Virus record (IMG/VR): IMGVR_UViG_3300008997_000008
Length of the DNA: 64,000 nucleotides
Source: a virus
Strand: one strand, 5' to 3'
Under the pieces are notes generated by a model. It did no database searches. It worked only from the letters and a program-made list of their open reading frames with translations, and was not told the origin of the DNA. Made by a program: the position numbers and the translations under genes. Within the stretch, counting starts at the first letter, position 1. Each line of letters begins with the position of its first letter. Shown here piece after piece: positions 14,199 to 24,448 of this stretch.

Positions 14199-15716
14199 CT
14201 ACGAGAGGAACTTGGCCAGCCGGGCTTGAACTCCCTCAGGCTCTGAGTTGACCTCGGACTCCCAGACGACCAGGCACTCGATACCGACCTCTTGATAGGC
14301 GGAGATGAGCTCCTGCTCGTGGGCGAACGGCACCTTTCCCGTGAACATCCGGCTGTGCCAGTAGTCGCCAAACGCTTCTACGACCTTCGTGACTCCCCGC
14401 TTGGGATGGTCCGGATCAGGTCCCGGAACGATGAAATCGGGGTTCTTGTGCTTGGAGAGTGTTGGCAGCCATCTCCAGAACGTGAAATCCCCTGTGAATA
14501 GGAGGGATCCCTCTGGGGCAAGGGCATGAACGGCTTGTTCCAGACCGTTGGGTCCGTCTACCGGAGAGGGTCCCCAGGGATTTCCGTACCGTTCGATCTT
14601 GGTGGCAACCATCCTACTGCTCACCTCCTTGTTTTGCATCGCAAAGGGGTGGCCATACCTCTCCATGTTCGTGGCTTGGAGACGGGCCATGATTTCCACG
14701 TCCTGAAGCACGTGGTCCACGCCATAGCGGGCCTGGGTTGTCCGGACGCGCTTCTCCAGGAACTCTGCGAGCTGAAGAGGATGGTCGACTCCGTATCTCT
14801 CTTGGAACACGGCGACGAGCCTGTCCCACGCCCCCTCAGCCTGCATCCAATGATCGACCCCATACCTCTCTCGGAAAGATGCGAGAATCTGGGCCTTGCC
14901 CTCCTCTGAGGCGAAGTAGTGGGACCCATACCTCTTGTGGTGCGTCGCCAGCTGCTTCGCTCGGACCTCTGGGTCCATGCAGGTCCAGGGGACTCCGTAC
15001 CTCTCCATGTTGGTCTGGCGGGTCCTCTCCCGAAGTTCGGGAGTGCGCTGAGGGACCTCGTCCCCGTAGCGTTCCAGGTTCGTGGCTCGAGCCTTCGCAG
15101 CAATCTCCGGAGAAGCAAGAAGCCTGCCTCCGTAACGGGCCTTGCACGTAGCTGTCGTGCGGGCTCGGATCTCCGGACACTGCTGGGGATTCTCAACTCC
15201 GTACCTCTCGAGCATCGTAGCTCGGATCTTGGCCTGGACCTCCGGGGACTCAAACGGGTTGCCGACCCCATGATTCCTCCGTAGGGTCTCCCGCATCCGA
15301 GCCTGAACCTCCGGAGATGAGGTGACATGCTCTACGCCATAGCGTTCCAGGTTGGTCTGTCGGATCTTGGCCTTGGCCTGCTCTGAGGCTCCCGGATTGG
15401 TGTGTCCGTATCTCTCGAGGTTGGTCGCAGCACGTCGTGCCTGCACAGAAGGGGCCTGAGAACCGTTCTCGACCCCGTGCCTCCGAAGAGAGGTCTCCCG
15501 CTTCCGCGCCTGGGCCACTGCCTTCTTGTCCCGAGACTGCCATGTAAAGCAAGTCCGACGGTGGCGCTTCATCTGGGTAGATGAAGTGGATTCATGGCCG
15601 CACAGGCAGGGGATCGGAGAGGGTGGGTTCGGCCATCCGGCACAGACACGTTTGTGCCTGGAATTGATCGATGTGCCCTTGAATCTACGTGAGCAATGGG
15701 GACAGATGATGGGCAT
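14199..15716 (-). CDS. Free-standing homing endonuclease: Zn fingers, (L/M)ERYGV.(N/H)P repeats and a Vsr/EDxHD-like nuclease domain
   Basis: About a dozen RYG/KRYG repeats; C-terminal NPDFIV...KVVEAFGDYWH...ECLVVWESE. Confidence 0.8.
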   Translation of the reverse strand: MPIICPHCSRRFKGTSINSRHKRVCAGWPNPPSPIPCLCGHESTSSTQMKRHRRTCFTWQSRDKKAVAQARKRETSLRRHGVENGSQAPSVQARRAATNLERYGHTNPGASEQAKAKIRQTNLERYGVEHVTSSPEVQARMRETLRRNHGVGNPFESPEVQAKIRATMLERYGVENPQQCPEIRARTTATCKARYGGRLLASPEIAAKARATNLERYGDEVPQRTPELRERTRQTNMERYGVPWTCMDPEVRAKQLATHHKRYGSHYFASEEGKAQILASFRERYGVDHWMQAEGAWDRLVAVFQERYGVDHPLQLAEFLEKRVRTTQARYGVDHVLQDVEIMARLQATNMERYGHPFAMQNKEVSSRMVATKIERYGNPWGPSPVDGPNGLEQAVHALAPEGSLLFTGDFTFWRWLPTLSKHKNPDFIVPGPDPDHPKRGVTKVVEAFGDYWHSRMFTGKVPFAHEQELISAYQEVGIECLVVWESEVNSEPEGVQARLAKFLS

Positions 15717-15781
15717 GGGTGAGAACCCCCTTGAAGGAAGGTTACCGTACCCTGCGTCCCAAATAAAGCCCTAAAAACCGG

Positions 15782-16672
15782 TTAGATGAATGACCGTGGA
15801 GACAAAATTCCCGCTCCCACATGTGGACCAAAGGCCGACCTCACCCCCCTGCCGAACCTGGGCTGGGCCAAGCCCCGCATGTACTTCTCGGTACGCTGCT
15901 TCGCCTCTGTGAGCTGAGTCCACTGAGCCTCGGCGTCCGCCCGGAGGGCCTGGTACTTGGAGGACTTCTCCAGATCGAGGCTGATTCCTCCGATGCTGTA
16001 GCCGAACTCATTCGCGACCCACTGGAAGCTGAGAGCCTGGGCGGCCAAGACCAGAGCTCCCCACAGGAGAGCTGATCTCCAACCCTGCTTCCCCTTGTAC
16101 ACCTTGTCGACCGTGGTCCACTTGGCAGAAGTGTCCGGAGGGTAGAGGTTCCACTTCCAGAGGGCCATCTCGAGATACTGGGCAAGCTCCTCGTCAGTCC
16201 AGATATAACCAAAGACCTGGTTGTAGCAGCCCACGGTCTCCGTTCCTTCAGGAGGACGGAACTTGTAGTGCTTGTCGGGGCAGTTTGACACCACGACCCC
16301 AGACCCCACGGGAATGAAGTTGTGATCCCCCTCCACGGTGATGTCGAACATGAAGCGCTCGCGAGGGGCAGCCCGGACCTGAGTCACCAGGATCAGCAGG
16401 CCCCCAGACCCCAGCACAGGAGATCCCTTCTCCAGATTCCTCGCCTCTGTCTTCTCAGTGGGTGCCGTGAAAACCCTGTGGTCTTCCGTGAGGATCATAG
16501 ACCCCCTGGAAGTAGAGACCTCCAGGCAATCCAAAGAATCTGGAATCTCCATCTTGGATGCTTTCAGAACACGCTGCCAACGTCCCTTCCCTTCCGGAGA
16601 GACGGTGCGGGTCTTCAGCCGACCCACTGAGAAAGCGGCGCGAATCCTGTTTCTGGTCTCAGAGGTGATCAT
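15782..16672 (-). CDS. IntC (aa 1-130) plus the C-extein of a neck/head-tail adaptor protein
   Basis: Intein block B ILTEDHRVF, block F FDITVEGDHNF, terminal VVVSN followed by Cys+1. The extein has WTDEEL..YL and EFGYSIGGISL, an adaptor-like pattern. Confidence 0.85.
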   Translation of the reverse strand: MITSETRNRIRAAFSVGRLKTRTVSPEGKGRWQRVLKASKMEIPDSLDCLEVSTSRGSMILTEDHRVFTAPTEKTEARNLEKGSPVLGSGGLLILVTQVRAAPRERFMFDITVEGDHNFIPVGSGVVVSNCPDKHYKFRPPEGTETVGCYNQVFGYIWTDEELAQYLEMALWKWNLYPPDTSAKWTTVDKVYKGKQGWRSALLWGALVLAAQALSFQWVANEFGYSIGGISLDLEKSSKYQALRADAEAQWTQLTEAKQRTEKYMRGLAQPRFGRGVRSAFGPHVGAGILSPRSFI

Positions 16673-17704
16673 GGAGCACGTCCTGTTCTGTCCAAATCTC
16701 GAAAGACACCCCCAGCCGCTCTGCTAACCGGCGGTAACGCGCGAGCTTCTGGGCTTTGGGGTGTTCTGGGGGGAGTCTAAGAACCCAACTTGCTTTCACC
16801 TCGACAATCTTCCATGACCCGTCTGTGAAGACCACCTTGAAGTCTGGCAAAATTGTGAGGCCTGCCTCATCCTTGAAAACAGGCTCGTACTCGTAGCTGG
16901 CAACCTGGACATCCCCTTCCAATAGCCGGACAGCAGCGGTCTCAAAGGTGCTTCGAACCCAAAACCTCGCTCTATCCGATTTGGTGCTGCGTACCCGGGA
17001 ACCCTTCCCCCAAGACCATTTCTGGGGATCCGCCTTGATAGCTGCTGCTTGCCGTGCGGATCTCTCCATACGTGTCTTTGGGTCCTGATGGAATCTTTCC
17101 AACTTCTGCCGGAATTCCGGGTTTGCCCAACGTTCCGTCATGGTTCGGCAAAACGCTGCTCTCCTCTCTGGAGTCCAAGAATCCCTGAGAGCTTGCCTCT
17201 CTTCCTCCGAACGCACCCTCCCTCTATGGAAGTCGAATTCTCCCTTCTCCCATCTCTCCTTCATCTGCTTGGAAAACCATGGCTTCTTCTCCCCTTTTCG
17301 GGCCCTGCCAGAACGTGCTCCCGCTTCGCTCAGGTTTTTTCGGGAGGCCACACAACCTACCGCACGGGTGTACCCTCTCAGCTGCCCCGCGCCGAAAGAA
17401 GTGAGAGCTGTCATCTGAGCCCAGGTTTTCCCCTGTTGGTGGAGTTCGGTAACCACTTCGCTTCGAATCCTCTTCACCTCGGGATCACGGACCATCCTGC
17501 GCGAGAACAACTCCCAACTGATCTCATGCTTCTCCAGGTACGGGACGATCTCCGGAGGCGGGTCTTTGGGGGGTGTCGCGGGTCTTGGCATCAGGATGCC
17601 TCTTGCATGGGCATATCCCCAATCGCCTCGTACAAGTCCTCGAGGCTCACCTGGATGATCTCCCCGTCCGCGTCCACTTCCACCAGGGTGTCCCCGCCCA
17701 GGCA
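16283..17704 (-). mobile_element. Split intein plus intervening homing endonuclease ('fractured gene' element)
   Basis: IntN 17591-17704, endonuclease 16659-17591, IntC 16283-16672. Confidence 0.85.
16659..17591 (-). CDS. Free-standing endonuclease with a TnsA-N-like PD-(D/E)XK domain and a basic helical linker
   Basis: RSTFE...YEYEP...LPDFKV...IVEVKA...K...FEIWTE. Start at 17591 by TGATG coupling. Confidence 0.8.
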   Translation of the reverse strand: MPRPATPPKDPPPEIVPYLEKHEISWELFSRRMVRDPEVKRIRSEVVTELHQQGKTWAQMTALTSFGAGQLRGYTRAVGCVASRKNLSEAGARSGRARKGEKKPWFSKQMKERWEKGEFDFHRGRVRSEEERQALRDSWTPERRAAFCRTMTERWANPEFRQKLERFHQDPKTRMERSARQAAAIKADPQKWSWGKGSRVRSTKSDRARFWVRSTFETAAVRLLEGDVQVASYEYEPVFKDEAGLTILPDFKVVFTDGSWKIVEVKASWVLRLPPEHPKAQKLARYRRLAERLGVSFEIWTEQDVLHDHL

Positions 17705-18100
17705 GTTGTCCCTGGTCATGATCCGGAGCTTGTTGATCAGGTCCCGGACCGCCGTCGTGTAGACATCTGCCGTTCCTGAGACATCCGCAACGACGCCAAA
17801 CTCCTGGACAGCACCTTCCTGGGATGAGGAAGCAGTCTCTCGGACCCGCCACCTGATGCGGTAGCAGCCCGCCACGGCAGAGTTGGGAATCCGGACCGCA
17901 GCGTAGTATTCCCCGACCTCAGGATTCACCGGCGTTCGGGTATCCGGACCGATGAGAACTTCAGCCCCGTTGTCCGAGTCCACGTAGTAGATCGAGTATG
18001 AAATCTCGTAGACATTGACTGGGTTCCCGTCGGAGTCTTCGGTGAAGATATCCAGGTCTCCACGCCCAAGTTCCTGGCCTTGCTCGAAGACGGTTCCCAT
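17591..18100 (-). CDS. N-extein of the neck protein (aa 1-132) plus IntN (aa 133-169)
   Basis: LRIMTRDN is followed by intein block A CLGGDTLV...VSLEDLY and then a stop; AGGAGG RBS. Confidence 0.85.
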   Translation of the reverse strand: MGTVFEQGQELGRGDLDIFTEDSDGNPVNVYEISYSIYYVDSDNGAEVLIGPDTRTPVNPEVGEYYAAVRIPNSAVAGCYRIRWRVRETASSSQEGAVQEFGVVADVSGTADVYTTAVRDLINKLRIMTRDNCLGGDTLVEVDADGEIIQVSLEDLYEAIGDMPMQEAS

Positions 18101-18142
18101 GAGGACCTCCTATCAGGGGGGAGAGATAGCTTCTCTACTCCA

Positions 18143-18370
18143 CTACTCCCGATAGACGGAACGCTTGAGATCCTTGATCGCCTGAACAAAGGAGAGGGCA
18201 GGGACCCGCGCCGTATCCGCGTAGAACTGATGACGTAGAGCCCCGAGGACATCCCGACCTGGATGTTCGAAGACCCAGGTGACTTGAGCCCCCTCTCGCT
18301 CAGTCCCCACATAGGTGAGGGCGGCGACCTTCAGGTACGCGGCGAAGTACAGATCCTTGGTCCTGAACAT
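18143..18370 (-). CDS. DUF5659-like small protein
   Basis: FRTKDLYFAAYL...VTWVF...FY pattern. Confidence 0.6.
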   Translation of the reverse strand: MFRTKDLYFAAYLKVAALTYVGTEREGAQVTWVFEHPGRDVLGALRHQFYADTARVPALSFVQAIKDLKRSVYRE

Positions 18371-18465
18371 TCAGCCTCCCAAACGCAGAGTCGCGTCCAC
18401 GAACCGGAGAACGCAGACGCGACAGGCCAAGGAGGACGGGGCAACGTCCTCAAAGGAGAACTGGA

Positions 18466-19137
18466 TCAGGCGGAGAGGACGTTGCCCTCGTGGTCGTACA
18501 CGACCAGGGCAGCACCCGCAGTCCCGCTGTACGAGAAGGCCGCCGCCGCAAAGGTGGCGATCCGACCCGAGCCGCAGGAGATCTGCAGGGCGCTCGTTCC
18601 GTACAGCTGACGGTAGGCGTCGTCGTCGAAGGAGCCGAGCTCCGCAGCAGCGGAGAGGCCACCGACCGTCGATCCGGAGGGCAGGGTGTACTTACCGCCG
18701 CTCATGATCTTCAGAATGTCCTTGACACTCCCCGAGGAGCTGTTTGCGTTGATGTCGGTGCCCGCTCCTGCTCCGCCCGTGGCGATCAGGTCAGCGTTGA
18801 TGGCAGCCTCGGTCAGCGCAGAGCCGGCATCCAGCAGAGCGATGAGGCCAGCAGCCCCGTCGTTGGCGACCGTCACCGTGATCGTGACGTTGGAGGTGCC
18901 GTCGATGACGTTGTCGATGAGGTACGCGGCGAGACCCTTGTACACAGCAGCGGTGTCCGTGCCGCCGGTCAGGGCAGCAAGGGTGTCGTTCTCGACCCGG
19001 TCCCCGAGGTAGCCGGACTGACCGACGGGCTCGAGAGTGAGGTTGCGGCTGGAGGTGTTGGGCTGCAGATCGAGCAGCTGGAGAGTGCCGGCAGGGATAT
19101 CGGTCCGGAGCCGGCAGACGTATGCGGTGTTGGCCAT
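18466..19137 (-). CDS. Probable virion structural protein (Ala/Gly/Thr-rich)
   Basis: Composition, capsid-like codon bias and position in the structural strand. Confidence 0.6.
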   Translation of the reverse strand: MANTAYVCRLRTDIPAGTLQLLDLQPNTSSRNLTLEPVGQSGYLGDRVENDTLAALTGGTDTAAVYKGLAAYLIDNVIDGTSNVTITVTVANDGAAGLIALLDAGSALTEAAINADLIATGGAGAGTDINANSSSGSVKDILKIMSGGKYTLPSGSTVGGLSAAAELGSFDDDAYRQLYGTSALQISCGSGRIATFAAAAFSYSGTAGAALVVYDHEGNVLSA

Positions 19138-19213
19138 TGTTGGAATACTCCGTGGAGACGTGCAGGGCTCGGACCCTACCTTGAGATGCGGTATTTCCTA
19201 TCTATTGGAAGAG

Positions 19214-19900
19214 TCAGCTCTGGATTCCGCTAACAAGGACAGCAGTGATCTGGAATCCAACGGCAGCTGAGTCTCCTCTGATGTAGAGAGGGCCCGCTCT
19301 GCCCTGGTAGATCGTGATGTCTTCACCAGCAGAGATTTCCCGCTCCGGGAGACCCGGGCCCGGAGACACGAACAGAGAGTTCGTTCCATCGGTGTTCTGG
19401 ATGTTGAGCTCATCGATGAACTTTGGGAAGTCGATGATGAGCGCATCAGGCGGGGGGAGATTGTTTGCGAGACCGGACACGTCAGGTCCAGTTCCCGGCA
19501 GGAAGAGGGTGTTGCGGCCACTGGCGAAGAATCCTGCGGGAGGCACTACCAGGACAGGGCCTTCTCCGAGATCGTTCCCTCCAAGGTCAACTTCGGACAC
19601 ACGGATGAACGCGATCTCTTCGTCGCTGGGGACGGTCGCGGAGACGAAATCCTCAGGGGCATACGCGAAGCGGGTCAGGTTCCGGATGGACATGGCGTCC
19701 ATCCCCCGACGAGTTCTCCGGAGAGTACGGCTCCGGACATGGCGCCCAGACCGAACCGTCGCGAGTTCAGTGGTCCCCGTGAACGCCGCATCCAGAGAAC
19801 GGGCCGCCCCAACCTTGTACGAGTAGACTCCAGCCCGACGACGGATCGTGAGGTCGATGACCCCAACATATCTCTTGATCAGATTGGGCGAGACCGTCAC
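19214..19900 (-). CDS. Probable structural protein, beta-rich
   Basis: Exact class B motif upstream. Confidence 0.55.
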   Translation of the reverse strand: MTVSPNLIKRYVGVIDLTIRRRAGVYSYKVGAARSLDAAFTGTTELATVRSGRHVRSRTLRRTRRGMDAMSIRNLTRFAYAPEDFVSATVPSDEEIAFIRVSEVDLGGNDLGEGPVLVVPPAGFFASGRNTLFLPGTGPDVSGLANNLPPPDALIIDFPKFIDELNIQNTDGTNSLFVSPGPGLPEREISAGEDITIYQGRAGPLYIRGDSAAVGFQITAVLVSGIQS

Positions 19901-19931
19901 GGGCTCTCCTACTCAGGAAACTTGGGATGCG

Positions 19932-19946
19932 ATAGGGGGTCCACCG
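19932..19946 (-). promoter_or_regulatory. Class B motif CGGT-N7-CTAT
   Basis: Exact match, 32 nt before GTG 19900. Confidence 0.6.
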
Positions 19947-19950
19947 GAGT

Positions 19951-20334
19951 TCAGGAAGAGGACTTCTCCGAAGCCGCCTTCTTCTCGTATCCCGAGGTGC
20001 CCAACCCCTTGGACTTGGCGAGCTTCCCAGCATCGGACCAAGACTCGGTCCGCTCCCCGCCGACATTGGGGACCAACTTGGGCCCCGAGGAGGAGCGACG
20101 GCGGTCCGCTGCCTTGGCATCAAGACGCTGGTTCTTCTTGGCCATCTGGCGCTTGATCTTGAGGTTCTTCCCTGTCCAGCCATCTCCCTTGAGGACGAAT
20201 CCTACAGGAGATACAGTCTTCCGAGCGGCCCCTCCACACTCCGGACAGTCCTGAGGATCCGCATACTGGGACATCCGAAGGATCTTCTCGAAGGGGTGGT
20301 CACAGGCATCGCAGTGGTAGGTATAGGTCGGCAT
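19951..20334 (-). CDS. FmdB-family Zn-ribbon protein
   Basis: MPTYTYHCDACDHPFE...CPECGG...GFVLKGDGW. Confidence 0.75.
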   Translation of the reverse strand: MPTYTYHCDACDHPFEKILRMSQYADPQDCPECGGAARKTVSPVGFVLKGDGWTGKNLKIKRQMAKKNQRLDAKAADRRRSSSGPKLVPNVGGERTESWSDAGKLAKSKGLGTSGYEKKAASEKSSS

Positions 20335-20363
20335 GAGGTCTCCAGAGACTCCAAGATACCCAG

Positions 20364-22223
20364 CTACCTGAGAAGCCACTCATAGAAGGCGTCCTGGGTT
20401 CTCTTGCTGGCCTTCTGTTCCAAAGCATCCTCATAAGAGAGCGTTCGGATAGTCCGGGGGGTGGTGACATAGAGATCGGGAGGAAGTTCTTTCTGGCGGG
20501 ACTTCTCGAACTCTGAGAGCACCACTCGGAAGAAGGCGTCCCACTGGGCACGGTTCCCCTTCTCTCCGTCCGCCAAGCTCACAGATTGGGTATTGGAAGC
20601 GGACATCCATCCATCTTCGTGAAGAGCCCGAGAGGCCCATTCCCGGAGATCCATCCCAATCCTCTGACGCTCCTTTTTCCAGAACTTCCGACGAGCCTTG
20701 TTGGCTGGGGAGTCTTCCAGGACCCGTGTCTCCTTTGAGAATACGGACCCGTGCTCCTGATGCGCCCGCTCGATGAACTTCTCTTCCTCTCGGGAGAGCC
20801 TTTCATGAGGGAGCCAATAGCCCTTGCCCAGGACATCCATCCATCTTTGACGAGACTTGAACCGACGAGAGTTCAAGACAGAGGAGTTCAACTGGAGGAC
20901 CTCGGTTCCGACCAACCCGGGAGTGTCCTGTCTCTCAACAATTCTTGAATCACGGGTCAAGGATGGAAGGATGTCCTCCATGTATCCAGCAGGGGCTTTG
21001 TAGTGGGAGGGCCATTCCTCCAGGGCATACGAGAGAAGGATATCTGGGTGATTCTTCCAAGCCCAACGACCGTGATCCCTGATTTCGATGAACCGACCCG
21101 AGGGGGAGATCCAAGCCCAGGAATGCTCCATCCTCGAGATAGCAAACCGGATAGCAACGCGCTTGGGACAGGGCAGGGCATGGAAGGAAGCTGTCTTCCC
21201 CCGCACCTCTGGATACATCCGGAGAGCGGCAGCTACGTGCTTGCAGCACCAGTTCTGCCCCTTGGGATCTCTCTTGTCGGGACGGGTTGCTGTTCCTCGG
21301 GGATCTCCCAGAAGATAGCCGCCATTCTTGGCCCAGAACTCGGGTCCCTGGTATTGCCAGAAGGGGCACGAGCAGGCACACCAGACGTGGTTCCGGGAAG
21401 TCCGGATCTTGACCGTATGTGTGCCGCTGCTCCCGGCTGCTCGGAGGGTGTAGACGCCGTCCCGCTCCCCCGAGGCTACCGGGGTGAGCCGAACCCTGCG
21501 CGCGCTGTCCAGGACCTTTCTGGACGTCCTATCCAGTATGTCCCGAGAGGTCGCGGCTGTCCGGGTTGAGGATCGGATTGTCCTCCCAACCACGGCCCCT
21601 TCCTCAGGATACATCTCCCACACCACCTCAACAAAATCGAGAGGTAGGGGAGAGGGCATCTTGATGTATCCGTCCCGTTCCTTTCTCATATCCGGATGGC
21701 GCCGGACCCCCACAAGATACGTGTTCTGGTTGGTATTGCGAGGGTCGTCACGACCAAAGTTCACATAGGACTCGGCATCTCGCGGGTCCTCCGCAAAGTT
21801 GGTGCCCTCCCCCTCCAGGGAGAATCTTCCAGTACTCCAGATAGGTTTGAGAGACCCCACGGTGTTCTTGAACTCCGCCTGGGTCATTCCCCGCCACACC
21901 AGGTTCCGAGGCCAAGACCCCATTTCCTGGAGGGCTTCGCTCCCAAGTGCTCTCCACCCTTTGGGGCGGAACACCAGGCTCGACTTGCGACGAAGACCTC
22001 TCCGAATGACCTCCCGAACCTGGGACACCCACGCGGGATTCAGCTCGAGCTTGAAGCCATGCTTGAGGTGGTCGGGGATCACTTTCGACGAGGCGGGGTT
22101 CATGCTGTCGTGAGCGGGGGAATTCCCACCAGAGTTCCCAGGGGCCTCTCCTTGGGGGAACGGGTTCCCAGCCTTCTCAGGCTGGTCGGGAGACTCCCGA
22201 TCATACAGGAACGTGTGGCTCAT
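20364..22223 (-). CDS. Multidomain ('polyvalent') protein: ART-like domain, SWIM Zn finger and WISPxG domain
   Basis: VWRGM...GTNFAEDP..AESY; CACSCPF...CCKHVAA (SWIM); WAWISPSG...H. Confidence 0.6.
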   Translation of the reverse strand: MSHTFLYDRESPDQPEKAGNPFPQGEAPGNSGGNSPAHDSMNPASSKVIPDHLKHGFKLELNPAWVSQVREVIRRGLRRKSSLVFRPKGWRALGSEALQEMGSWPRNLVWRGMTQAEFKNTVGSLKPIWSTGRFSLEGEGTNFAEDPRDAESYVNFGRDDPRNTNQNTYLVGVRRHPDMRKERDGYIKMPSPLPLDFVEVVWEMYPEEGAVVGRTIRSSTRTAATSRDILDRTSRKVLDSARRVRLTPVASGERDGVYTLRAAGSSGTHTVKIRTSRNHVWCACSCPFWQYQGPEFWAKNGGYLLGDPRGTATRPDKRDPKGQNWCCKHVAAALRMYPEVRGKTASFHALPCPKRVAIRFAISRMEHSWAWISPSGRFIEIRDHGRWAWKNHPDILLSYALEEWPSHYKAPAGYMEDILPSLTRDSRIVERQDTPGLVGTEVLQLNSSVLNSRRFKSRQRWMDVLGKGYWLPHERLSREEEKFIERAHQEHGSVFSKETRVLEDSPANKARRKFWKKERQRIGMDLREWASRALHEDGWMSASNTQSVSLADGEKGNRAQWDAFFRVVLSEFEKSRQKELPPDLYVTTPRTIRTLSYEDALEQKASKRTQDAFYEWLLR

Positions 22224-24448
22224 GATTCCTCTCTGTGGCTCACTTGGCCATAGAACAGGTGGGAGGAGAAGTCGATATCCTCAACATCCACGTTCTCCGG
22301 AGGGGCAGGGGCCAGGTGAGCCCCGTCGATCAGAGCATCTGCGATCAGCTCGATGTTGGCAGGCTGGAGATCTTCGAGACCCAGCCCGTCCGTGAACGGA
22401 GCGCATTTGGCCGAGAACTCTTCGGAAGCCACGTCATAGCCCTGGATCTGGGCGCAAGCCAAGAGACCCTCGTGGTCCAGATCCTCATAGGCATCCAGAC
22501 CGATTTCGGTCTCTACGAGCTCCATGAAGGCCAGGGTATCCGCATCCGACATGAAGGTCGCTACGCGGAGGAGGACCTCTACAGGGAGGGACGCGATGGG
22601 AGACACATCCCGCTCATGGACCTGGAAGGTGACGACGCCGGTCAGGGGAGAGACCGAGTGAACGTGGCAGAGGAGGTGCTCCGGACCCAGGACGAAGGTG
22701 ATCTGCGGAATCGTGAGGACCGAAGCGTTCTTGGGCGCACGTCTCTCGTAGCGTCCCGGGTTCTTCCGGTACATCTCGCGTCGCTTCATACAACGAGGAT
22801 TCTTCTTGCACTTCAGGTGGTAGCGACGACGGGACTTCAGCCGGTTTTGGTTCTTGTTCTTTCGATACCGAATCTGGTCCTTGCGCTTGTCCGTGGTGCG
22901 CTGTCGACGTTGGGGGCGTCCGTTCTCCCCACCCCGCTCTGTAGGAACCGCATAGTTGGAAGCCAGGAGAGCCACCCGGCGGATGTTGACGGAGAAGCGA
23001 GAGCCAATCATCTTCCGGTTCTGCTTCTTCCGCCGCGCCTCGCTCCGCTTCCGAGCAGGGTTGTTCTTCCAGGAGCTCTTGGACCGACGACGCCTCTGCT
23101 TCCGAAGGAGCTTCGCCCGGTTCTTGCGGTAGTAGGCGCGACTCTTGGCTCGAGCCTGTCCCCTCTGCTTCCGCCGCCGTTTGCCGGGCTTCCACCTCTG
23201 CTTCCACACGGCCAGACGGAGGAAGGCCCTTCGGGACAGGAGCGCATCGAAGAACTCGTCCTGAGCCTTCTGCCCGCCGATTTCCTTGACGAACTCCTCG
23301 AGAGGGATCCTTCGGGAATCCGAGGCGTTTCCCTTCTCCTGGTCCAAGAAGACAGTCTTGGAGGGGTCTACAATCGCAGAGCCTGCACAGTCATTGATGA
23401 GCTCCAGGAGCCCCTGACGTGCCCCTGGGGAGAGGTCCTTGAGGCCCCCGCCGATCTGTATTGCGTACAGATTCGTGACAGCCACCCAACCTGTAGATAC
23501 AAGCCAATCACGAGGAGACTTCCCGAACTTGGGCTTGGGCCCTCGCCAGGCCAGGAACTGAGGATCCTTCTCGAAACGATTGAGAGCCCATACTCCGTGA
23601 TCTACATGGATGCGATGAATCACTCCCTTCGGTGAGATCCATCCCAGGGAGTGTCCCATCGTACAGGAGCCGGAAGCTTGGGGTCTACGGGTCACGATTC
23701 CATCCGTAGTGTCGTTGACAGGGTGCTCGGTTGTCTGAGCACCAGGGACACCCAGAGTCCGGGGCTGGAGGTCGCGGTCCATATCCGGAGTGTTGAAGTT
23801 GGTGGGACCGATTGCCCGGCCGTGGGCTCCCGGATGGGCAGCATCCGGGGGGAGAGCCGAATATGACACCTCATCAGACCCATTGTTCCCGGTGGGGAGG
23901 CCCATCTCCGAGTTGTGGGTCACGTGCGTCTTGGTGCCGAAGTCGTTGGGGTCTCGAGTCTCTGCGAACTTCAGAAGCACACGGAGCGCCGACGTTTTCT
24001 CAAAATCAGTGCGCCACATGTGGAGAGGAGCAGGCTTCTTCAGAGCTTGCTCCAGGGCTTCCTTGACTTCCTTGCGCGCGGGACCGATGCTCCCCGGCTC
24101 CTTCCACTGGGCGACCCAGGCCTCGTATCCCCCACAGTCCCGCATCTCGTCCAGCGCCTTGAGAGCTTCCTTCAGGAGTGGCTTTGGCACCGCAGCGTAG
24201 AGGGAGTCTGAAGAGAGGAACAGAGCGCCCAACCAGGTCCAGTACTCGAACACGTTGTCTCTCTCAGGATCCTCGCTCTGCTTCCGGATGCGGGTCAGCT
24301 CCTTCTTGAGGTAGTCGAAGGCCGGCTTGGACTTCACCTTGTTTAGGACACGCCAACGCTCATCATGAGGACCATCACCTTCCCAGGGGAGGTATCCCCA
24401 TGACCCAGCAATGACGGCGCGGACAGCTTGGCGGCGTGAATCAGTCAT
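22220..24448 (-). CDS. Multidomain protein with a WISPxG domain and long Arg/Lys-rich tracts
   Basis: GWISPKG...H..WA; two highly basic segments; class B-like motif upstream. Confidence 0.65.
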   Translation of the reverse strand: MTDSRRQAVRAVIAGSWGYLPWEGDGPHDERWRVLNKVKSKPAFDYLKKELTRIRKQSEDPERDNVFEYWTWLGALFLSSDSLYAAVPKPLLKEALKALDEMRDCGGYEAWVAQWKEPGSIGPARKEVKEALEQALKKPAPLHMWRTDFEKTSALRVLLKFAETRDPNDFGTKTHVTHNSEMGLPTGNNGSDEVSYSALPPDAAHPGAHGRAIGPTNFNTPDMDRDLQPRTLGVPGAQTTEHPVNDTTDGIVTRRPQASGSCTMGHSLGWISPKGVIHRIHVDHGVWALNRFEKDPQFLAWRGPKPKFGKSPRDWLVSTGWVAVTNLYAIQIGGGLKDLSPGARQGLLELINDCAGSAIVDPSKTVFLDQEKGNASDSRRIPLEEFVKEIGGQKAQDEFFDALLSRRAFLRLAVWKQRWKPGKRRRKQRGQARAKSRAYYRKNRAKLLRKQRRRRSKSSWKNNPARKRSEARRKKQNRKMIGSRFSVNIRRVALLASNYAVPTERGGENGRPQRRQRTTDKRKDQIRYRKNKNQNRLKSRRRYHLKCKKNPRCMKRREMYRKNPGRYERRAPKNASVLTIPQITFVLGPEHLLCHVHSVSPLTGVVTFQVHERDVSPIASLPVEVLLRVATFMSDADTLAFMELVETEIGLDAYEDLDHEGLLACAQIQGYDVASEEFSAKCAPFTDGLGLEDLQPANIELIADALIDGAHLAPAPPENVDVEDIDFSSHLFYGQVSHREES

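Follow-up and report, generated by a model that had tools for sequence, protein, structure and literature searches.

A fractured gene for a probable neck protein in a huge uncultured phage, with the halves of a predicted split intein on either side of a TnsA-like nuclease gene

The window analysed here is a stretch of 64 000 nucleotides (nt) of viral DNA from the IMG/VR record IMGVR_UViG_3300008997_000008, a record of 126 kb that is rated 28% complete. It carries three closely packed and co-oriented open reading frames (ORFs) on the minus strand, which a first-pass annotation had described as a virion neck gene broken into two pieces, each bearing one half of a split intein (IntN and IntC), with a free-standing endonuclease gene between them. 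The ORFs, the intein blocks A, B and F, the coordinates and both overlaps were found exactly as given there, on the minus strand. The first ORF, the N-piece (18100..17591, 169 amino acids (aa)), has an AGGAGG 6 nt ahead of its ATG and terminates in ...IMTRDN↓CLGGDT...QEAS followed by the stop codon (arrows mark the borders between intein and host protein, or extein). The nuclease ORF (17591..16659, 310 aa) overlaps it by 1 nt, the A of the nuclease ATG being the A of the N-piece TGA (TGATG), and the 3' end of the nuclease ORF in turn overlaps by 14 nt the ATG (16672) of the third ORF, the C-piece (16672..15782, 296 aa), which contains LTEDH, FDITVEGDHNF and VVVSN↓CPDKHYKFRPP. From N-extein to C-extein the parts are arranged as follows.

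17705..18100, minus strand: N-extein, 132 aa; immunoglobulin (Ig)/macroglobulin-like beta-sandwich and first helix of the putative adaptor domain; aligns with residues 1-132 of uninterrupted homologs
17594..17704, minus strand: IntN of 37 aa (net charge -10); contains block A and has Cys1 as first residue; followed by the TGA stop at 17593-17591
16659..17591, minus strand: free-standing putative homing-endonuclease gene, 310 aa; helical N-terminal part and TnsA-like PD-(D/E)xK C-terminal part
16283..16672, minus strand: IntC, 130 aa; block B (T-E-D-H), block F (FDITVEGDHNF) and block G with a Ser-Asn end; charge of the first 40 residues +9
15782..16282, minus strand: C-extein, 166 aa and stop codon; starts with Cys+1 (CPDKHYKFRPP...); main body of the helical domain, beta-hairpin and C-terminal tail

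Neither a sigma-70-like promoter nor a convincing terminator was found between the three ORFs, which fits co-transcription and translational coupling. The real start of the C-piece is Met1 at 16672, the position at which 22 homologous C-pieces also begin. In one public annotation, P0006 (238 aa), Met59 is taken as the start of the C-piece, whereby the first 58 residues of IntC (16499-16672, minus strand) are lost; a start of this type would hide the intein from annotation pipelines.

As the pieces in the window gave weak matches when used alone, relatives were brought in through a profile, A4, built from 16 contiguous inteins of the same family. Its members are contiguous mini-inteins from the same site and from a second site of the extein family, and those at exactly the same site as in the window, 144-169 aa in length, were found in P0129, P0132, P0136, P0163, P0203 and P0220. 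The A4 profile matched more than 40 solved intein structures, the best being the Pho RadA intein (E 2.4e-17), and further matches included the PolII, TFIIB, DnaE, gp41-1 and NrdJ-1 inteins as well as the atypically split PolB16 intein (8cpn_A, E 3.5e-6); 15 of the 16 members matched Pfam Intein_splicing. When the two halves from the window were aligned to A4 with hhalign, IntC (130 aa) matched columns 32-160 (E 4e-26) and IntN (37 aa) columns 1-30 (E 1.5e-8). Thus, the halves are complementary, do not overlap and jointly span the whole splicing domain, and the earlier proposal of a split intein in a fractured gene, with a free-standing endonuclease between its halves, was supported.

The nucleophiles of a class 1 intein were likewise all present in the window's pieces. 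The N-terminal nucleophile is Cys133 of the N-piece, corresponding to Cys1 (..TRDN↓CLGGDT), and Cys1 occurs in all 23 homologous IntN clusters, which are 30-42 aa long and have charges of -2 to -10 (mostly -5 to -10). The block B motif T-x-x-H is represented by T62-E-D-H65 of the C-piece, its His being invariant and its Thr nearly so in A4 and in an alignment of 29 sequences. Conservation over these 29 family representatives extends to both block B residues (Thr and His), to block F, to the terminal Asn and to position +1 (Cys or Ser), and the splice-site nucleophiles have been kept although identity elsewhere is only 25-45% (23 IntN and 29 IntC or cis representatives). At the C-terminal junction (..VVVSN↓C) the terminal Asn and Cys+1 are preceded by Ser as the penultimate residue; this Ser-Asn terminus is the norm of the family (24 of 29 members), and is an atypical but conserved variant rather than a local defect. 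The two halves are also complementary in charge, IntN with -10 facing +9 in the first 40 residues of IntC. The split site lies N-terminal to block B, so that IntN holds block A only and IntC holds blocks B, F and G. On these sequence features the element is a class 1 intein, atypically split into a short IntN and a long IntC.

The predicted ligated extein comprises 132 + 166 = 298 aa, the length calculated in the first-pass annotation, and has the junction ..TRDN-CPDKH... It aligned with the uninterrupted 298-aa homolog P0009 over 298 of 298 residues in one high-scoring segment pair (HSP), with 66.6% identity, an E-value of 9e-154 and no gap at the junction. Matches as strong as those of IntC, IntN and the joined extein are far from what chance would produce. 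Contiguous homologs, proposed earlier as a check, do therefore exist and align across the junction; besides P0009 they include gp319 of Tunturiibacter phage Tunturi_5 (283 aa, contiguous, annotated as head-tail connector), with a single HSP across the junction (E 2e-33), and gp165 of Bacillus phage G, also contiguous and aligned in a single HSP. When interrupted and uninterrupted sequences were classified by their junction motifs, 99 of the 120 best matches of the joined extein were uninterrupted at this site, and uninterrupted homologs read ..TRDN-[N/D]PDRNY.. at the junction. The gapless alignment with such homologs indicates that removal of the intein restores a continuous host protein. For the C-extein more than 580 homologs were found. 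One uninterrupted allele, P0007 on contig L011, reads ..TRDN-CPDKNYKF.. and shares 57 of 72 nt with the window around the junction; from its sequence it looks like an empty or vacated intein site. The homolog alignment A2, meant to hold uninterrupted sequences, contains at least seven C-pieces (IntC and C-extein) of near-equal length, which affect its N-terminal columns and the hidden Markov model coordinates taken from it and leave the C-terminal adaptor half unaffected; junction motifs were for this reason the basis of the classification.

The 310-aa product of the middle gene has 28 homolog clusters of about 300 aa, over which E236, P249-D250 and E264-x-K266 are invariant, the last motif reading E264-V-K266 in the window. 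In its AlphaFold2 model (predicted local distance difference test (pLDDT) score 86) the N-terminal two-thirds, roughly 190 aa, are helical and the C-terminal domain is alpha/beta; to judge from the model, the helical part is probably DNA-binding. The best Foldseek match of the C-terminal domain in the PDB was the Tn7 endonuclease TnsA (1t0f_A, E 9.7e-6; also 1f1z), followed by other PD-(D/E)xK nucleases, and Pfam PF08722 was passed by orthologs, with 39 bits for that of the uncultured phage LR745208 and 37 bits for another, against a cut-off of 26.5. Contigs shared by nuclease and N-piece clusters include those of 102,772, 421,103 and 338,860 bp, and the nuclease stands at the same position in LR745208 (38% identity) and in the contig L006 described below (40%). 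This co-occurrence and fixed position identify the 310-aa protein as the nuclease of the cassette. By its motifs and its model it is a TnsA-like PD-(D/E)xK nuclease, and its constant association with this intein site (28 nuclease and 23 N-piece clusters, on shared contigs) suggests a function in homing. A literature search linking TnsA-like nucleases with inteins or homing found nothing relevant.

In order to describe the host protein, its fold was taken from an AlphaFold model of the uninterrupted homolog P0009 (pLDDT 80.7). In this model a beta-sandwich (residues 1-104) is followed by a helix (117-129) and a helical core; next come a beta-hairpin (226-235) and a long helix, and the chain ends in an extended tail. 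The intein site falls after helix 117-129, i.e. inside the adaptor-like domain and after its first helix. The N-terminal sandwich resembles macroglobulin/Ig-like domains (Z 8-9.5). With residues 116-280, a wide search by VIA-align retrieved phage portal-tail or neck chains at Z 7.5-10.2, from KHP30, Pa223, cyanophage A4, GP4, VP1, SU10, the phage 812 neck, DEV and phiCD508, and also T4 gp13 (9lu4_D, an entry that holds only gp13 and gp14) and the PhiM1 portal and adaptor (8vb4_M). All non-Ig matches among the top 50 structural matches were phage portal-tail or neck entries, and the whole helical domain and the hairpin were covered. Z scores of 8-10 are middling for helical folds, and the matches carry weight because they are uniformly of portal-tail or neck type.

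Other approaches to the host protein gave mixed results. PHROG 17327 ('head-tail connector') was matched by five of 51 homologs, with a best E-value of 8.6e-6, and was not matched by the window's own pieces. The nearest named Atlas clusters, based on protein-language features, were Mu gp36, T4 gp13, the SU10 adaptor and the gp6-like connector, with scores of 0.81-0.89. The extein family is restricted to large phage contigs. Direct comparison of the window's three proteins with Pfam and PHROG yielded sub-threshold matches only, PDB searches with the sequences of the two exteins and the nuclease yielded nothing useful, and a Foldseek search of the whole extein model against the PDB and Swiss-Prot was dominated by the N-terminal Ig-like domain and told little about function. 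No literature on phage G gp165 as a virion protein was found, nor a virion proteome or structure of a homolog. The earlier guess of a head-tail adaptor thus gains moderate support from the fold, the PHROG match in relatives and the annotation of Tunturi_5 gp319, and on its modelled fold the extein is probably a portal-binding adaptor or neck protein.

Two variations in architecture were seen among uninterrupted homologs. In P0193 (411 aa) the N-terminal Ig-like domain is duplicated, positions 1-104 of the extein profile matching twice. P0022, P0046, P0028, P0033 and about 20 more (316-333 aa) are extended at the C-terminus by a hydrophobic stretch of about 25-30 residues that follows the conserved ..LSPR.F. 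and is absent from the window's protein.

Eighteen contigs from several samples carry the identical N-piece in the same gene order; the contigs derive from ENA ERZ23498905, JGI 3300007765 and SRR9166044, and the longest, from ENA ERZ23498905, measures 338,860 bp. Since the locus there is identical, the uncultured phage represented by the window is a huge phage of at least 339 kb. The nearest fractured relatives are 46-65% identical, a divergence at which synonymous sites are saturated. The same three-ORF layout is present on contig L006 and in LR745208 (L002), an uncultured phage of 485 kb, with an extein identity of 46% for the latter. In L002 the boundaries of the ORFs differ from those in the window, with a gap of 30 nt and an overlap of 91 nt.

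Comparison across the family revealed a second intein site. Among 150 representatives of clusters formed at 50% identity, 56 had no intein at either site, 29 had one at the site occupied in the window (site a), 55 at the second site (site b) and 17 at both sites, all counts being rough because the pieces cluster separately. The two sites are the family's two most conserved motifs, ..PDxxYxFxPP.. and ..EFxYSxGGxSL... Such conserved motifs are the usual targets of inteins and homing endonucleases. Homology between inteins a and b spans the whole of IntC (E 2e-9), and the loop in which they are split is also the same. In L006:1-2864, from a Logan contig of SRR32540802 (59.8 kb), the same adaptor-like gene is present in three pieces with two split inteins, in the following order.

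TnsA-like nuclease of site a
P0182: IntC-a, 94-aa extein and IntN-b
P0276: DUF559/Vsr-like nuclease
P0277: IntC-b and C-extein

These ORFs overlap by 1-4 nt and the two nucleases are unrelated to each other. At least eight further clusters of middle pieces were found (P0190, P0194, P0195, P0205, P0216, P0219, P0230 and P0157). The site-b intein (..EF↓S....AHN↓[S/T]YSIGG..) has Ser1 and Ser or Thr at +1, and so is without a catalytic cysteine. Its carriers include P0130, P0134, P0148, P0149, P0159, P0200 and P0192; some copies are contiguous (157-196 aa), and others are atypically split into an IntN of about 28-40 aa and an IntC of about 130-180 aa. From these sequences the site-b intein possibly represents a natural cysteine-free split intein with a short IntN.

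Directly downstream of the C-piece there is a further gene of the homing-endonuclease kind.

14199..15716, minus strand: second free-standing homing-endonuclease-like gene, 505 aa, with DUF7487 repeats

Its product matched PF24308 (E 5.6e-81) and phrog_3339, homing endonuclease (E 2.5e-44); it contains about five ERYG-type repeats and its C-terminus looks Vsr-like (..FGDYWH..). In LR745208 the C-piece is followed by the same gene (L002 4627-6060), and in L011 the uninterrupted allele has a DUF7487 gene at a distance of 2.7 kb. Probably, the 505-aa gene is a selfish element in its own right, adjacent to the same conserved gene. Upstream of the N-piece, six minus-strand ORFs (18143-24448) encode proteins of 75, 223, 228, 142 (a Zn-ribbon protein), 619 and 742 aa, for which Pfam and PHROG gave no confident match apart from the Zn-ribbon protein; the 619-aa ORF had a sub-cutoff match to SWIM only (18.7 versus 19.6 bits). 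The flanking genes being mostly unannotated, a neck module is neither favoured nor disfavoured by the gene context.

What is observed directly is how the gene is built, together with its homologies, the conservation of catalytic residues and the existence of uninterrupted homologs; splicing, homing and the adaptor role are inferred. Taken together, the locus is very probably a fractured neck-protein gene whose halves are rejoined by the split intein into a protein of 298 aa, with a nuclease gene between them. Such a locus may have originated when a mini-intein entered the most conserved motif (..RDN↓xPDRNY..) of a neck protein of roughly 298 aa, probably the portal-binding adaptor. A gene for a TnsA-like PD-(D/E)xK homing endonuclease would then have inserted in the loop between blocks A and B, turning one gene into three translationally coupled ORFs. 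The N-piece and the C-piece would be made separately, and the acidic IntN and the basic-headed IntC would pair by charge and fold complementation to form a HINT domain. Class-1 splicing would proceed through the Cys1 thioester, attack by Cys+1 and cyclisation of the terminal Asn, and the product would be the continuous protein with Asn joined to Cys at the ..TRDN-CPDKH.. junction. Presumably, the nuclease acts by cutting intein-free alleles of relatives during co-infection, and the whole cassette would be spread in this way.

Several observations weigh against this interpretation. The C-piece scored 21.1 bits against Pfam Intein_splicing (PF14890), the curated cut-off of which is 35.8, and the window's nuclease stayed below the cut-off of PF08722 (17.9 versus 26.5 bits). 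Replacement of the usual penultimate His by Ser could slow Asn cyclisation. Phage G gp165 is without the N-terminal Ig-like domain, and the C-extein might therefore function unligated. On the side of the adaptor, the tool used warns that chance can reach Z scores of 8-10, which it calls common for helical folds; the assignment leans also on weak leads, namely the PHROG hidden Markov model (HMM) and the language-model clusters; and Pfam adaptor families were unmatched by the 51 homologs, while the neighbouring genes are unannotated. Two of these points, the penultimate Ser and the free-standing adaptor domain of gp165, would suit halves that only dock non-covalently through their intein fragments, or a C-piece that sheds IntC by Asn cleavage, in either case with no ligation. 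The model for such an arrangement is the Aeh1 nrdA gene in pieces, and assembly of split phage genes without splicing is known (PMC3045599). We consider assembly of this kind improbable, as Cys1, T-x-x-H, the terminal Asn and Cys/Ser+1 are present in all 23 IntN and 29 IntC or cis representatives, contiguous members of this intein lineage have to splice if their host protein is to be freed, and the adaptor domain itself is interrupted behind its first helix. That the extein is some other protein, of the virion or not, and that neck assembly is independent of splicing, is an unlikely reading but a more substantial one: it can draw on the missing Pfam match, the unannotated flanks, the middling Z scores and the Atlas adaptor scores below 0.9. 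Set against it are the uniformity of the non-Ig matches among the top 50, the independent match to the PHROG 'head-tail connector' HMM (E 8.6e-6), the four named neck/adaptor families among the nearest Atlas clusters and the confinement of the family to large phage contigs.

The remaining alternatives concern the state of the locus and the level at which its middle part is removed. Homing cycles do end in decay, and one N-piece cluster (P0286) looks frameshifted, so that the window might hold a remnant with a dead intein and a broken host gene whose function is supplied elsewhere. This is very improbable: all three ORFs are intact in the window, as they are in relatives of 38-65% identity, the catalytic residues of intein and nuclease are invariant, the N-piece is the same on all 18 contigs, and a single intein-like locus was found in the 126-kb record, which is only about 28% complete. 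Phage homing endonucleases often reside in group I introns, and if the middle ORF lay inside a self-splicing RNA intron, its removal would give a contiguous mini-intein gene. However, IntN has its own stop codon and IntC its own ATG, overlaps such as those of 1 nt and 14 nt typically accompany translational coupling, and the boundaries are not the same in relatives (L002). A search for Rfam group I or II introns in 15500-18400 gave no match even at E <= 1. The group I/II intron, which we regard as hardly credible, was rejected on the grounds of the absent Rfam match, the separate stop and start codons and the variable boundaries. We thus retain the fractured neck-protein gene with its trans-splicing intein as the preferred explanation.

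When the window is considered along with its relatives, we lean slightly towards a wider interpretation, in which the neck-adaptor family of huge phages would be an intein hot spot. One mini-intein lineage would have entered the two most conserved motifs; in both, the loop between blocks A and B would have been the place of the split, caused by TnsA-like nucleases at site a and by unrelated Vsr/DUF559-like nucleases at site b, and some adaptors would be made from three polypeptides via two orthogonal trans-splicing reactions. The TnsA-like enzyme would be an undescribed type of homing endonuclease, and the site-b intein (Ser1, Ser/Thr+1, IntN of about 30 aa) a natural cysteine-free, atypically split one. 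If this is true and the ring is a 12-mer, three-piece adaptors would need 24 ligations per virion, and the site-b intein would be of the kind sought for protein semisynthesis.

Natural protein trans-splicing has so far been tied almost entirely to enzymes of replication and nucleotide metabolism and to terminase. Here, it is apparently needed for a stoichiometric part of the virion that joins head to tail, across a clade of very large environmental phages, and the presence of the cassette in a probable neck protein implies that selfish elements can settle in conserved structural motifs, and not in catalytic ones only. For protein engineers, the family offers dozens of natural, mutually diverged and atypically split intein pairs with a short IntN (30-40 aa), and the relatives also offer a candidate cysteine-free pair and predicted two-intein, three-piece assemblies, which are properties wanted in that field. 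The TnsA-like PD-(D/E)xK nuclease is a candidate for a new homing-endonuclease type, one whose target site is defined and conserved. What appears to be new is the neck/adaptor-like host protein, the TnsA-like type of nuclease and the family-wide two-site pattern with three-piece genes; the principle is already known, both for fractured genes (PMC2677866) and for the atypical split site (PMC10189870).

The published fractured genes (Dassa, London, Stoddard, Schueler-Furman and Pietrokovski 2009, PMC2677866) have DNA-metabolism enzymes and terminase as hosts, in agreement with the statement of the first-pass annotation that they are found mainly in replication, nucleotide-metabolism and terminase genes. 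Like them, the locus described here consists of adjacent, co-oriented ORFs, the outer two carrying the split-intein halves and the one between them encoding a free-standing endonuclease, is of phage origin, and has oppositely charged intein halves, as is the case for natural split inteins (PMC2677866). It differs in its host, a virion neck/adaptor-like protein, and in its nuclease, which is of the TnsA-like PD-(D/E)xK type and neither GIY-YIG nor Vsr-like (EDxHD) as in the published cases (PMC2677866), although the second-site cassette of the relative L006 does carry a DUF559/Vsr-like nuclease. The position of the split is also different: the inteins of that study were modelled on the joined DnaE split intein (PMC2677866) and the IntN of natural split inteins is typically about 100 aa (PMC10189870), whereas the present intein is divided between its blocks A and B. 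Natural atypically split inteins are known, for example PolB16 OarG with a 15-aa IntN (PMC10189870), with which the present intein has in common that IntN is short (here 37 aa), that IntC is long (here 130 aa) and that the source is phage or metagenome. In contrast to PolB16 OarG it has another host protein, belongs to another lineage (best match the Pho RadA mini-intein), combines Cys1 and Cys+1 with a Ser-Asn end and has the endonuclease gene still in place.

Contiguous inteins have been reported in phage portal, minor capsid and tape measure proteins, and they splice in cis and mostly contain in-frame LAGLIDADG or HNH domains (bioRxiv 10.1101/2025.01.02.630785; Kelley 2016, PMC5050341). The dependence of an essential virion-assembly protein on protein splicing, here predicted, would be shared with these inteins. 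The accessible portion of the bioRxiv report lists neither an adaptor or neck protein nor a case of trans-splicing among its virion inteins (10.1101/2025.01.02.630785). The earlier remark, that an essential structural protein dependent on trans-splicing is not known to have been described, is qualified by these contiguous inteins in virion proteins and by the known atypically split inteins. With known adaptors (T4 gp13, SU10, PhiM1 and T7 gp11-like) the modelled host protein shares the helical domain, the beta-hairpin and the extended C-terminal tail, at Z 8-10 over residues 116-280; unlike them, it has an extra N-terminal macroglobulin/Ig-like domain and no membership in a Pfam adaptor family, and is known here from sequence and model. 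Similarly, the nuclease shares with Tn7 TnsA (1t0f, 1f1z) the PD-(D/E)xK catalytic fold, and its orthologs match PF08722, but it is not part of a transposon, possesses a helical N-terminal region of roughly 190 aa, lies inside a split intein and presumably acts as a site-specific homing nuclease.

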